Positions 2,738 through 58,460 of a stretch of DNA of 59,003 nt are shown one piece after another. Source of the stretch: Chiloscyllium plagiosum (taxonomy: Eukaryota); contig NC_057719.1 in NCBI RefSeq assembly GCF_004010195.1, forward strand, positions 37,055,417 to 37,114,419, in the 5' to 3' direction. The first letter of the stretch is position 1. Each line of letters starts with the position of its first letter. The notes below the pieces were generated by a model, which was not told the DNA's origin, searched no databases, and saw only the letters and a program-made list of their open reading frames with translations. The translations under genes were made by a program, and so were the position numbers.

Positions 2738-3500
2738 GTTAACATTCATTTATAAGTGGCTAGAATTCAATAGAATAGATGTACTGCTGTGTAAGGCTCT
2801 GGTCAGATCACAATTGAGGAGAAAGTGAGGTCTGCAGATGCTGGAGATCAGAGCTGGAAATGTGTTGCTGGAAAAGCGCAGCAGGTCAGGCAGCATCCAG
2901 GGAACAGGAGAATCGATGTTTCGGGCATAGGTTTCCTGAAGAAGGGTTCAGACCACAATTGGAACATTGTGAGCAGTTTTGGACCCCGTATCTAAGAAAG
3001 GGTGTTCTGATGTTGGACGGGGTTCAGAGAAGGCTTATGAGAATGATCCTGGTGACAAAGAACTTGTCAGATGAGGAGCAGTCGAGGACTCTGTATGTAC
3101 TCAATGGAGCTTAGATCGATGAGTGGGGCACCTGATTCAAACTTACAGAATACTGAGAGGCTTGGAGAGAGTGGATCCTTGTCTCACCTCCTTCACTAGT
3201 AGGCGAGACTAGGATCTGAGGGGACAGCCTGAGAGTGAAGGGATGACCTTTTAGAACTGAGATGAGGAGGAATTTCTTCAACTAAAGGGTAATCTATGGA
3301 GCTGTATTGTTGCAGAAGGCTGTGCAGGCCAAGTCATTGAGTTCATTTAAGACAGAGATAGATATAATCTTGATTGGTAATGACATTAATGGTTATGGGA
3401 GAAATCAGCAGAATGGGTTTAAGAAATATCAGCCATGATCATATGGCAGAGCAGACTGCATCGGTAGAATGGCCTAACTTTGCTCCTATGTCCTATGGTC
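2738..3500 (+). mobile_element. CR1 LINE 3' fragment interrupted by a Penelope mini-insertion
   Basis: RPQLEHCEQFWTPYLRK motif; ends in a cctatgtcctatggtct tail. Confidence 0.85.
2817..2947 (-). mobile_element. Penelope-derived ~130-nt terminal-repeat insertion with an internally inverted hammerhead half
   Basis: Homologous to the Penelope terminus at 22940-23030 and 23400-23531. Flanked by tcagatcacaattg (2803-2816) and tcagaccacaattg (2948-2961), a 14-bp TSD with 1 mismatch. Confidence 0.88.
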
Positions 3501-3765
3501 TTTGGTTAGCCTTCACCACTTTGTACACTCTCGTTTTTGACTGGATTCTCTCCTTGAGCACCATTGTTATTATGAGTTCATCCTTTTCATTAAGTTCTTC
3601 TTTTGGGCTGTAATGAATTTTTGTATTATGAAATATTTACTTCAATGCCTGCCACTGCTCATTCACTGACTTTCTGCTTTGTCTATTCTCCCAATCTAGT
3701 TTAGACCATTCTTTCATCATACCTGAGTAATTATTCTTTTTAAAATTGAGGACATTGGTTTGCGA

Positions 3766-3892
3766 GGAGAAAGTGAGGTCTGCAGACACTGGAGATCAAA
3801 GCTGAAACTTTATTGCTGGAACAGCACAGCAGGTCAGGCAGCATCTAGGGAACAGAAGATTCGACGTTTCGGGCACATGCCCTTCTTCAGGA
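3766..3892 (-). mobile_element. Penelope-derived 127-nt hammerhead-headed mini-element
   Basis: Perfect 17-bp direct repeats aggacattggtttgcga at 3749-3765 and 3893-3909; the body is the Penelope terminal repeat. Confidence 0.92.
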
Positions 3893-3893
3893 A
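3860..3893 (-). ncRNA. Minimal type I hammerhead ribozyme motif, core intact
   Basis: Minus strand: ttc-CTGAAGA-A-GGGC-atgt-GCCC-GAAA-CG-TC-gaa. This gives CUGANGA, 4-bp stem II, GAAA, palindromic ACGU in place of stem III, a GUC cleavage triplet and a short stem I (ttc/gaa). Confidence 0.8.
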
Positions 3894-4565
3894 GGACATT
3901 GGTTTGCGACCCAAGTTTCACTCCCTCATACTGAATTTGAAATTCTACCATGTTGTAATCACTACCACTTAATGGATCCTTAACTAAATTATTCATCCTA
4001 CCTCATTACATATTTCAGGATCTAAAATAGCCCGTTCCTGGGTAGCTTGTACAATATACTGCTCTAAGAGCCAATTGTGATGATCTCTACAAATTTATGT
4101 TCTGTACTACTCTTGCCTATTGGATTTGTCCAATCAATGTGCAGATTAACATCACCTATGACAATTGTCATGCTCTAAGTACATGCCTTTGTTATTACAT
4201 AACTTATATTTATTCTACAGTGAGGCAATAAATAAGGGACATATACACAATCTCCACCCTTCTTTTCCTTGATATTCCTTATTTCCACACAAATTGATTT
4301 CACATCACAACCTATTGTATCCATATCACTATTTGTTCCTTTATTAACAAAGCTACCACAGCCCCTCTACATTTTTGCCTATTTTCCTGGAAAGTCAAAT
4401 ACTCTTGAACATTGAGTTCCTAGTGCTGATCACCCTGCAACCATGTCTCTGTCATACATATTAAGTCATATTCCTTGATTTCTATTTCAGACATCAACTT
4501 ATCTCTTTCATTATGAATACTGCAAGTTTTCAGATAAAGAGCTTTGATTTTTTTTAACTACTATT

Positions 4566-11394: not shown

Positions 11395-11787
<393 letters not shown>

Positions 11788-21785: not shown

Positions 21786-22650
21786 TAAATTCACCTGGAC
21801 CATCTCTGTCACATCCCTCCCTTTCCTGGACCTCTCCATCTCCATCAACGGTGACCGACTCAACACTGACATTTTCTACAAACCCACCGACTCCCACAGC
21901 TACTTGGATTACACCTCCTCCCAGCCTGTCAAAATGCTATCCCTTATTCTCAATTCTTCTGCCTCCGCCGCATCAGGAGGACCAGTTCCATCACAGATGG
22001 TCTCCTTCTTTAAAGACTGCAATTTCCCCTCCCATGTGGTTGATGATGCCCTCCAGCGCATCTCATCCACTTCCTGCACCTCTGCTTTCAAACCCTACCC
22101 CTCCAACTGCAACAAGGACAGAAACCCCCCCCTTCTGTCCTCACCTTACACCCCACTAAGCTCTGGATAAACCGCATCATCTGCTGCCATTTCCGTCACC
22201 TACAAACAGACCCCACCACCTGAGATATATTTCCCTCCCCACCCCTATCTGCTTTCCATAAAGACTGTTCCCTCTGCGACTACCTCAAAAGATCCACGTT
22301 CCCCCAACAACCCAGCCTCCCCTCCTGGCACCTTCCCCTGCCACTGCACCTATGCCCATACCTCCCCCTCACTACCATCCTAGGCTGCAAAGGTGCCTTC
22401 CACATCCATCAAAGTTTCACCTACACTTCCACATGTCATTTACTGTATCCGCTGCTCCTGATGCGGTCTCGTCTATATTGGGGAGATAGGATGCCAAATC
22501 CCATAGCGCTTCAGAGAACATCTCCGGTACTCCCGCATCAACCAACCCTACCGCCCTGTGGCCGCACACTTTAATTCCCCTTCCCCTTTGCAACCGCAGG
22601 AGGTGCAACACTTGCGCCCACACCTCCCCCCTCACTTCTCTCCAAGGCCT

Positions 22651-22818
22651 TAGGTCAGGATCACGGTGAAGCAGACTGGGATCACATTTAATTAGGTCAG
22701 GATCACAGTGAACCAGACTGGGATCACGGATAGTTAGGTCAGGATCACGGTAAAGCAGACTGGGATCACATTTAATTAGGTCAGGATCACAGTGAACCAG
22801 ACTGGGATCACGGATAGT
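22651..22818. repeat. Hierarchical minisatellite: 21-bp subunits, 42-bp units, 84-bp higher-order repeat x2
   Basis: Unit A taggtcaggatcacggtgaagcagactgggatcacatttaat and unit B taggtcaggatcacagtgaaccagactgggatcacggatagt, arranged ABAB; ggatcac recurs every 21 bp. Confidence 0.95.
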
Positions 22819-22938
22819 TAGTCTCCTCCGACCTATCACCCTCACCTTGACCTCTTTCCACCTATCACATTTCCAACGCCCCTCCTCCCAGTCCCTCCTC
22901 CCTACCTTTTATCTTCTCCTGCTGAACACTCTCTGCTC

Positions 22939-22974
22939 ATTCCTGAGGAAGGGCCTGTGCCCGAAACGTCGAAT
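22939..22974 (+). ncRNA. Minimal type I hammerhead ribozyme motif, core intact
   Basis: attc-CTGAGGA-A-GGGC-ctgt-GCCC-GAAA-CG-TC-gaat; stem I attc/gaat. Confidence 0.8.
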
Positions 22975-23401
22975 CTCCTGTTCCCTGGATGCTGCCTGAC
23001 CTGCTGTGCTGTTCCAGCAATAAAGTTTCAACTTAATTCCCCTTCCCACTCTGCCGAGGATATGCAGGTCATGGGTCTCCTCCATGACCACTTCCTTACC
23101 ACCCAACGCCGGGAGAAAGAACTTCCGGCTCGGGACCCTCCAACCCCATGGTATCAATGTGGATTTCACCAGCTTTCACATTTCCCCTCCCCCCCACCTT
23201 ATCCCAGTTCCAACCTTCCAGCTCAGCTACACTTCATGACCTGTCCTGCCTGTCCATCTTCCTTCCCACCTATCCGCTCCACCCTCCTCTCCAACCTACC
23301 ACCTTTACCCCACCTCCATCCACCTACTGCACTCTCAGCTACCTTCCCCCCCAGCCCCAGCCCCCTCCCATTTATCTCTCCACCCCCAGGCTCCCATCCT
23401 C

Positions 23402-26096: not shown

Positions 26097-26366
<270 letters not shown>

Positions 26367-56245: not shown

Positions 56246-58460
56246 ATGCAAGTGCAGAAAGCAATGAAGAAGGCAAATGAAACTAAAACAGAAATTGCTG
56301 GAAAAACTCAGCAGATCTGGCAGTATCTGTGGAGAGAAAACAGAGTCAATGTTTTGGATCTAGTGATTGTTTTTGAGAATGTTCTGGCCTTGGGCAGATC
56401 AGCAATGATCTTGTATAAACCCAGACAGGCTTGAGATGTTGAATGTCCAGCTCCCATCACCGAATCCCTTTTGATCTTATGCAGAAAACATTTACAAAGC
56501 TGGGTTTATTCATTGTGGGGACAAAATCTCTGGAAGAACAAGTGCTAAATAGCAGGAGTAGAAGAATTCTTTTCACATGTTTATTTAACCATAGAATACA
56601 TTAATGCACAAGACTGAAGTCAACTCAATTTCTACATTCAGAGGAAAATAAATATGCAAGGAAGAGCAAAACCGTGAGATAAGTATAGAGAAGTGGGATT
56701 AAATTGGTATTGTTGAGACAGAAAAGGATGAATTAAAGTTGCCTTGCCTATGCAATACATTCCCCAGTTTTGTGAGAGTTCCAAAAACTAAACTCCATCT
56801 GCTCACAGCATTAATATAATTGCAGCAATACCTTTTTATAAATATGGCACTGGGAGCTATGGGATACTGCTAGCCAATGGTGACAGTTTTGATTTATATT
56901 TTGCCTTCACAGGTTTGTAAGTAGGTCACTTGTGACACTCACTTCATTTCTGGGTCAGTGAGGAATTTGCAAAAGCTCTAACTTCTGAGCGAGTGTAGTT
57001 TGTCTGTCCTGAGATAAGATCCAAACGTATATCTCTCATTCACACGCATGAAAAAAAGACACAACACCAGAGTCTAGATTTACAGCATTGAGGTGGGGAG
57101 TCAGGGTTTGTACGGTTCCTGGTTTTGTGCGATCACCTTGGCAGTAAGTGCCCACAAAGGCAGGATTTTGTGCCGAAGGATGGTTGCAGGTGGACCAGCC
57201 AATACAGGAAAAAAAAGGTCTGAGGTTGCAACCCCTGGTGGCTGAAGCAGGCTGTATAAACACCCTGCTCTGGGGCTGTGGGAGCTTGTCTCAATTTATT
57301 AAAAAAAAATCAAAAACAAAAACAATTATGAAGCCCTAAGTTCCTCATTCCCCAATATACACTCCATGGCCCAGTCATTCCATCTCATGCACTCTATCTC
57401 ACACTATGTGCCCTCCTACCTCCATGGTGCCTCACACCACCTATGCTGGTCATCCCACCCTTGTCCCAATGTGGTCTGTTATGTCCCCTATGCCGCATTA
57501 TTCCTCCAACCACTGCCCATGCCCCTCATGACACTTATGCCAAATTATGGCTCTTCCATTCCCACAATGCACTGTATACAACTAATATACCCTCCAGTGA
57601 CAATATACCCTACAGTGTAACAAATACAGCTTCAAAGGCATTAATTACTATCCACTGTACGAAAACATTTATTTTTACTAAAAGCAAAGGGAACAGCAGA
57701 AACTGCAAACACTTGAATTAGCTTAACCTTATGTAAACAAACCTGTGAAATTGACAGCAGAAATCAGAGTCAGAGCTGTCAATCAGCAGGTATTTTCACA
57801 GAACAATGATGTCTCTGGCATTTCTTATGTTGACGCACTAAAGAGTGTGAATGATTAACACTTCTATTCTCTTGTAGCAAAAAGGAGTATTAACACGTTA
57901 TTGTAACTTTCATTAGTTTTATTTCATTAGTGCATAGTGGGTCAATGGAGATGCTACAGCTTGATATAAAGGGAAATAAGAAGTCACAGGGACAGCTGGA
58001 GGCATGGTTTGCCAAAGGAGTCATAAGGAAGCCCTTTAGAATTTACCACTCAAATGATATGTTCTTGCTGACTATGGAGCAGGAGTATTTGAAATGCTGA
58101 TCTGATACCGATGAGGGATGAAGAGCAGTAGGACATGCTTATCTCTGCCATGGAGCCTGGCTTGATCTGAGCTGTCCTCATGAATTGCCACAGATGTAGT
58201 GATAAGTTTTGTTTTTACCTTCACTAGGTTATTTATAAGCAATACTCATGTTGTTCTCATACATGGATGTAGGAAACACTGTATGAAAGATTCAATAGAC
58301 TTTTTTTGCAAGCCCTGGTATCTGCAATTGTTTCAGTTAATTCAGTTGCAAACTATTCACACTTCACTCAACATGTAATGTTGCAAGTGGCCCCAGTAAG
58401 ATGAAGACTAATACCTTTATACTATCAGGTCACATGCTACGAACTTATCTCGACGCCAAC

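Follow-up and report, generated by a model that had tools for sequence, protein, structure and literature searches.

The stretch analysed here (the window) comprises 59,003 nucleotides of the Chiloscyllium plagiosum contig NC_057719.1 and includes two minus-strand exons encoding the EVH1/WH1 domain of EVL (Table 1), which we take to be exons 2 and 3 by vertebrate exon numbering; exon 1 was not located here. Approximately 7.7 kb beyond the donor of the second of these exons lies a 127-nt insert between direct repeats. An exon-4-like segment (G000:C10:37028469) and, beyond it, proline-rich and EVH2 exons and a tetramer-helix segment with a VASP_tetra match are found on the same strand, 27–84 kb past the left edge of the window. 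Because the EVH1 exons come before the insert and the exon-4-like, EVH2 and VASP_tetra segments after it, all on the minus strand, the insert is intronic and sense to the pre-mRNA. An earlier note had placed it, in sense, in EVL intron 3; the intronic position after the second EVH1 exon and the orientation stand, while the number 3 depends on the presumed exon numbering.

Table 1. Features of the EVL insert and related elements in the window
Feature	Position	Strand	Basis or remark
Insert, 127 nt: terminal repeat (pLTR) and tail of a Penelope-like element (PLE), putative Neptune type	3766..3892	-	genome search, family copies
Target-site duplication (TSD), copy at the 3' (priming) end of the element	3749..3765	+	exact direct repeat
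TSD, copy at the 5' end of the element; first base ambiguous with element nt 128	3893..3909	+	exact direct repeat
Tail, approximately 35 nt between two RT start sites	3766..3800	-	inverted arms of relatives end at nt 30–38, mode 35–36
Minimal type I hammerhead motif	3860..3893	-	core 3890-3863; helix II of 4 bp; palindromic ACGU replaces helix III
Competing 9-bp hairpin, predicted: flank/TSD 3899-3891 with ribozyme core 3885-3877	3877..3899	-	would block helix II
Older relative of inverted type between 14-bp repeats (2803-2816 and 2948-2961, one mismatch)	2803..2961	-	direct arm 2818-2927, inverted arm 2933-2946
Tail-less pLTR ending a longer family copy, antisense to EVL, with full 4-bp helix I	22937..23034	+	sequence comparison
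EVL exon, second half of the EVH1/WH1 domain	11610..11787 (approx.)	-	presumed exon 3
EVL exon, first half of the EVH1/WH1 domain	26145..26303 (approx.)	-	presumed exon 2

Element positions are counted from the tail end, with nt 1 at window position 3766. The Penelope derivation proposed for the insert was borne out: searches of the same genome with the insert returned copies with an identity of up to 100%, the long ones continuing into an RT/GIY-YIG body. In a genome pattern search with the tail 50-mer, exact matches numbered 1318 for the form with CG at its variable site, 13 for the variant of the EVL copy, and 10 and 86 for sister variants; among the sampled CG-group copies covering all 127 nt, 29 of 42 have that site as their one mismatch to the EVL copy. 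CpG decay at three other sites of the unit, in the same direction, occurs at a rate (2/126) that leads to an expectation of approximately 21 variant copies against the 13 seen, and the one private change of the EVL copy fits ordinary CpG decay from the 1318-copy group. A private short-only subfamily was rejected on this count, the absence of long copies from the variant group (0/13) being a weak hint of a short-only source that is not significant (p = 0.064). The EVL insert is genuine yet unremarkable, near-identical stubs numbering well over a thousand.

In two long copies (L106 and L109) the unit follows RT ORFs, with an identity of 98.4%. A third (L120) has an ORF matching RVT_1 (E 2.7e-6) and GIY-YIG (E 3.3e-4), both slightly under the Pfam curated cut-offs, and contains the motifs DKG, YIDD and IY-CxxC-YIG, as expected of a PLE-type RT (DKG) with a C-terminal GIY-YIG bearing an internal CxxC, together with a CX4CxxC at amino acid 532 that corresponds to the CX2-5CxxC linker upstream of GIY-YIG. 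According to the available part of PMC8557442, this linker marks Neptune and Nematis and is absent in Poseidon. The motifs thus suggest that the parent is an EN+ Penelope-like element of Neptune type, the linker being common to Neptune and Nematis. The genome contains at least 150 RT matches, the majority with more than 90% amino-acid identity, so this is a large and young family. Its copies show a pLTR with hammerhead, an optional 30–40 bp tail, an inverted partner and a TSD, and they end 3' either at nt 1 or at approximately nt 35, which indicates two fixed start sites 35 nt apart; a tail of 30–40 bp is known in PLEs from the accessible portions of PMC11167929 and PMC8557442. No intact full-length 5' end was found, with none of 20 long-ORF loci (drawn from the at least 150 RT matches) having an upstream pLTR joined to the ORF start, and the ORF-start loci (30 of the 40 matches listed) are for the most part short tandems adjoining N gaps, on which no reliance was placed.

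Several composite forms of the family were also seen. In the window, the longer copy at 22300-23034 has a 42-bp tandem repeat (22650-22817) fused to the terminal 242 nt of the element, and the same junction at L125, L237 and L241 suggests a re-mobilised derivative with its own source. Elsewhere (L061-L090, L235/L236, L249, L298, L230 and L219), tandem units of approximately 210–320 bp have pLTR, tail and ORF start running straight on into the 3' UTR and another pLTR; these are retrozyme-like, and as many lie at N gaps with identical edges, they may reflect assembly collapse.

The reading of the EVL insert as a product of target-primed retrotransposition is upheld. Its perfect 17-bp TSD, as described earlier, holds as an exact repeat, with the qualification that 1 nt and a further 3 nt (CGA) also match the element: the last three bases of the priming-side copy equal the read-through sequence of the element (row L037: TSD 17, read-through 3), which is likely a priming microhomology. 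The true stagger was probably 13–14 bp, plus microhomologies of 1 and 3 nt; the modal TSD of the family is 14 bp (35 of 113 detected TSDs). At the other end, the target sequence 3893-3899 matches six of seven bases of the expected cDNA fold-back product, as in the inverted copies L231, L233 and L260, and such a fold-back may be the source of both the junction and the hairpin described below.

Read on the minus strand, the insert opens two bases before a CUGAAGA core; next come an extra A, helix II of 4 bp, GAAA, an ACGU stub and the cleavage triplet. The minimal hammerhead core reported by the earlier note is present (C3 at 3890, helix II formed by 3882-3879 and 3874-3871), and the core layout agrees with the predicted cut between 3863 and 3862. 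The Rfam check suggested for it failed to recover the motif: a scan of the window at E ≤ 1 matched no hammerhead family to the insert or elsewhere and gave only two weak, chance-level matches. A weak mir-192/215 match at 57730-57802 on the minus strand (26.4 bits, gathering threshold 54) is probably a chance hairpin. The description of the ribozyme as intact does not hold, as the copy stops at nt 127/128 while helix I of the family needs nt 129; 3 bp are left, one of them ambiguous with the TSD, compared to 4 bp in long family copies. Of the features of a minimal hammerhead, the conserved core, helix II and the palindromic helix III stub are all found in the EVL copy, while a formable helix I of 4–5 bp is not, its predicted probability being 0.0000 in the EVL context. 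In folding predictions, the EVL flank forms 9 bp with the ribozyme core together with the 5' strand of helix II; with 17–100 nt of flank, helix II has a predicted probability of approximately 0 and a hammerhead-compatible fold would cost +6.9 to +7.7 kcal/mol. The corresponding predictions for a parental RNA whose first base is nt 129 are 0.98 and +1.4 kcal/mol. The hammerhead of the EVL copy is predicted to be misfolded and inert, and the copy to be a passenger.

This bears on the suggestion that the copy cleaves EVL pre-mRNA within intron 3 during transcription, altering EVL output. Its sense orientation and unmutated core are what such cutting would call for. The nearest core on the same strand lies 17.4 kb downstream and is degraded (mutated core, 1-bp helix I). 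Of the hammerhead-like cores in the 189 kb of locus surveyed, eight (one of them probably chance) are on the EVL strand and 11 on the opposite strand, so that no purge of sense copies is visible. Cleavage of dimers has reportedly been described by Lunse et al., as cited in a review. In the available portions of the published work, minimal hammerheads in vitro had no activity as monomers and low activity as dimers (PMC4209133), eight of nine frog retrozyme dimers were without cleavage (bioRxiv 10.64898/2026.07.22.740005), and PLE hammerhead cleavage was reported with the help of protein (PMC11167929), so the protein of the element could aid folding here as well. Because helix I is clipped, the flank is predicted to sequester helix II and the same-strand partner is 17 kb away, cutting of EVL RNA is very unlikely, and the copy is probably without effect on EVL. 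A palindromic family copy further down EVL on the minus strand (G000:C10:37008912, in L304) retains all 4 bp of helix I on the EVL strand, which makes it the better cleavage candidate.

Using all copies of the groups with 13, 10 and 86 members and the first 90 listed of the 1318, it was possible to tabulate where copies end (199 rows; four same-locus duplicates were dropped to leave 195 tail-anchored copies, of which 11 censored by gaps or edges were set aside to leave 184). The truncation hazard per nucleotide of direct arms is approximately 0.004 at nt 50–111, increases to 0.029 at 112–123 and 0.091 at 124–131, and declines beyond the boundary to 0.013 at 132–160 and 0.006 at 161–300. Direct arms end at 124–131 in 58 of the 184 copies and at 128–129 in 36, and the furthest 5' reach per insertion is at 126–131 in 83/184, shorter in 59 and longer in 42. 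Inverted arms, present in 97 copies, mostly start at 112–131 (46 at 126–130, three of them at 127) and end at 30–38. The result is a sharp boundary at nt 127–130 that is the same on direct and inverted arms, and sequencing-read depth and contig joints in separate datasets drop off at the same place. Ends at the ribozyme cut are almost absent, with one of 184 direct arms ending at 96–99 and one of 97 inverted arms starting at 98. The near-fixed copy length claimed by the earlier note is upheld to the extent that 5' ends are not random, and random 5' ends, the outcome named beforehand as refuting it, were not what the tabulated copies displayed; the length of the unit is not random, yet it is not strictly fixed either.

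Among 93 inverted copies, 46 have an inverted arm whose start lies more than 3 nt past the end of the direct arm; because it begins beyond that end, the second arm was not copied from the first cDNA but from a separate cDNA with the same limit. Snap-back of a single cDNA is excluded as the only origin of the inverted arm in these 46 copies and possible in the remaining 47. The excess of ends at 112–123, many of them at microhomology junctions, indicates that end-joining or structure also shapes where copies end. Near-identical inversion and jump junctions (175–176/152–153, and 291) recur between copies (L005, L144, L226, L234; L083, L085, L139, L159) and could be microhomology hot spots, re-mobilised composites or assembly artefacts. 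Three stubs of 71–80 nt (L031, L048 and L246) have long duplications of approximately 40–70 bp, unlike the 14-bp norm.

At the boundary stands an initiator-like motif, TCATT, with its A as the boundary base; this A is also the first base of helix I. Initiator consensus sequences are short and common, which counts against reading the boundary as a start site. A splice acceptor, as in Drosophila Penelope, was rejected as the boundary since the bases before it are CTC rather than AG. A cap-templated extra base fell short of significance (9 of 19, p = 0.13). Reads from two sequencing runs were compared to L068:1489-1856. The single-cell RNA run X21 contributed 1527, from both strands, of which 92% run into unlike sequence, and the other run (X22) contributed none; the X21 reads have no pile-up of starts or ends, the library being a fragmented single-cell one that is not expected to reveal a start site or cleavage.

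A second, older hammerhead-bearing family (L313-L342) has at least 4451 matches, of which 30 were read. It has a 5-bp helix II of different sequence and its own tail, and it occurs in the same solo and inverted forms, with seven or eight of the 30 copies being long. Its boundary lies 6–9 nt ahead of the core (approximately 7/30, by eye), at an initiator-like motif and not at helix I, and none of the 29 readable copies starts at the ribozyme cut.

We consider it probable, at moderate confidence, that stubs such as the EVL copy are one-armed insertions begun at an internal RT start approximately 129 nt into the RNA of an active element and ended by run-off at the 5' end of that RNA. The protein of the element would prime at the tail within the 5'-terminal repeat of its own mRNA, and the RT would copy approximately 129 nt before running off the end, which would be the transcription start just ahead of the hammerhead. 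The template would be an uncleaved transcript in which the tail continues into the ORF start. One such cDNA would give a solo stub and two would give the head-to-head form, whereas priming at the downstream repeat would give long, randomly truncated copies. The GIY-YIG nuclease would cut with a stagger of approximately 14 bp, the ends being joined through short microhomologies. Under this reading the 5' boundary is likely the transcription start, at the initiator-like TCA(+1)TT. Several results speak against it: the X21 reads revealed no start site, the cap signature was not significant, the gapped assembly yielded no intact full-length 5' end, ends are already in excess at nt 112–123, and the variant group carries a weak hint of a short-only source.

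Both the genome and published systems offer points of contact with this proposal. Among short copies, 15 of 148 extend at least 5 nt past the tail in register with ORF-start sequence, so that their template continued as in the parent transcript, and because the sharp boundary lies upstream of the ribozyme with none at the cut, we infer that uncleaved RNA is the template in vivo. The available text on an anole PLE reports internal RT start in vitro at two sites, 111–118 nt into the ORF opening at helix II, extension of both DNA strands and no need for ribozyme cleavage (PMC11167929); in the shark family the distance from tail end to helix II is 117 nt. The transcript of Drosophila Penelope starts inside the upstream pLTR at a TATA-less internal promoter, according to the portion of PMC2377424 available. 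On balance, we lean slightly towards the broader statement that an autonomous element mass-produces hammerhead-headed stubs of fixed length as a by-product, every mRNA having a priming site approximately 129 nt from its cap and the stub 5' ends mapping the transcription start site with single-nucleotide precision.

The same ends might instead come from ordinary 3'-primed 5' truncation with a hot spot, the RT stalling or ends joining near the hammerhead on a long template owing to structure or palindromic microhomologies. The additional ends at 112–123 and the many microhomology junctions are as this would predict, and approximately a quarter of copies pass the site (20/83 in the main group). 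The cliff, however, is 12 nt past helix II, after the RT would have opened that helix, and it is the same on both arms and at a different offset from helix I in the second family; we regard this origin as unlikely, though it deserves serious weight. That copy ends are set by the hammerhead cut at approximately nt 97 is scarcely credible: the catalytic core is conserved, and weak cleavage by minimal PLE hammerheads is known for dimers (PMC4209133) or when protein assists (PMC11167929), going by the accessible parts of both papers, yet next to no arms end or start at the cut in either family and the copies retain the whole core, upstream of it.

The earlier note had instead proposed a SINE-like, non-autonomous unit of approximately 130 nt, self-propagating from its own master copies and mobilised in trans. 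Near-fixed length is in keeping with this, as 33 of 195 copies are solo copies of 124–131 nt, 21 of them with a TSD of at least 9 bp; an internal promoter might be included in a copy whose 5' end is the putative start site, and PLE enzymes act in trans on pLTR-bearing sequences in the part of PMC3846280 available. The haplotypes do not separate as independent descent would have them, being common to short and long copies (CGCTAT 34/18, TGCCGG 22/12 and TGCTAT 10/12, short/long), each solo copy has its own different flank, the ragged 3' ends track ORF-start sequence, and half of the copies have two arms in inverted arrangement around varied centres. Scanning the window with Rfam at E ≤ 1 gave no tRNA, 7SL or 5S head. 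The insert at 2817-2947, cited earlier as a second unit of near-equal length, turned out to be structurally different, an inverted-type copy of coincidental length with a 110-nt direct arm and a 14-nt inverted arm inside repeats matching at 13 of 14 positions, and with no hammerhead core on the EVL strand. With the same diagnostic alleles on short and long copies and a private change that fits CpG decay, an independent SINE-like family is not supported and we judge it improbable, while some stubs may have been re-mobilised.

Much of the architecture is familiar. The available portions of PMC4209133, PMC3846280 and PMC8557442 already describe pLTR, tail, inverted partner, TSD and solitary minimal hammerheads. 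Neptune-type EN+ PLE insertions (PMC8557442, PMC3846280) resemble the shark copies in hammerhead pLTR, 35-nt tail, TSD and inverted partner, and the parent in RT, CX2-5CxxC linker and C-terminal GIY-YIG. As described in the accessible text, their 5' truncation is variable, whereas approximately 45% of the shark family stop within a 6-nt window at the hammerhead front; the solo pLTRs of the rotifer paper (PMC8557442/PMC3846280) are without TSDs and ascribed to recombination or deletion, unlike the EVL copy with its TSD. The metazoan minimal hammerheads of Cervera and de la Pena 2014 (PMC4209133, in part) share the CUGANGA core, the extra unpaired base before helix II, the G10.1-C11.1 pair and the palindromic helix III stub, and are mostly single motifs from truncated PLEs, but their helix I is 4–5 bp, compared to 3 bp, beside a 4-bp helix II and a flank predicted to block the fold, in the EVL copy.

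The Anolis Poseidon element PAc (Frangieh et al. 2024, PMC11167929), which belongs to a different clade from the shark element, is alike in its two internal RT sites bounding the tail and in the helix II distance, with both strands primed and cleavage not needed; its main text, so far as available, contains no fixed-length, start-site-bounded class of insertions derived from 5'-repeat priming. Non-LTR retrozymes (bioRxiv 10.64898/2026.07.22.740005, in the portion available) are likewise non-coding, pLTR-related and equipped with a type I hammerhead, and dispersed monomers are known, but they comprise at least two tandem units with complete ribozymes, while the EVL insert is a single TSD-flanked unit collinear with the end of its parent. 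Retrozyme identity was rejected for the insert on this ground, a single unit lying between the TSDs. A literature search that covered few subscription papers returned nothing describing the sharp 5' boundary or a shark PLE-derived SINE.

The end statistics of this family matter modestly for understanding the transposition cycle of Penelope and the job of its hammerhead, and the boundary gives a single-nucleotide prediction of where Penelope transcription starts. If true, the by-product reading would account for the solitary minimal hammerheads that animal genomes contain in their thousands, with no need to invoke SINEs or ribozyme cleavage, and frequent simultaneous priming of two arms would also explain the head-to-head inverted pLTRs.
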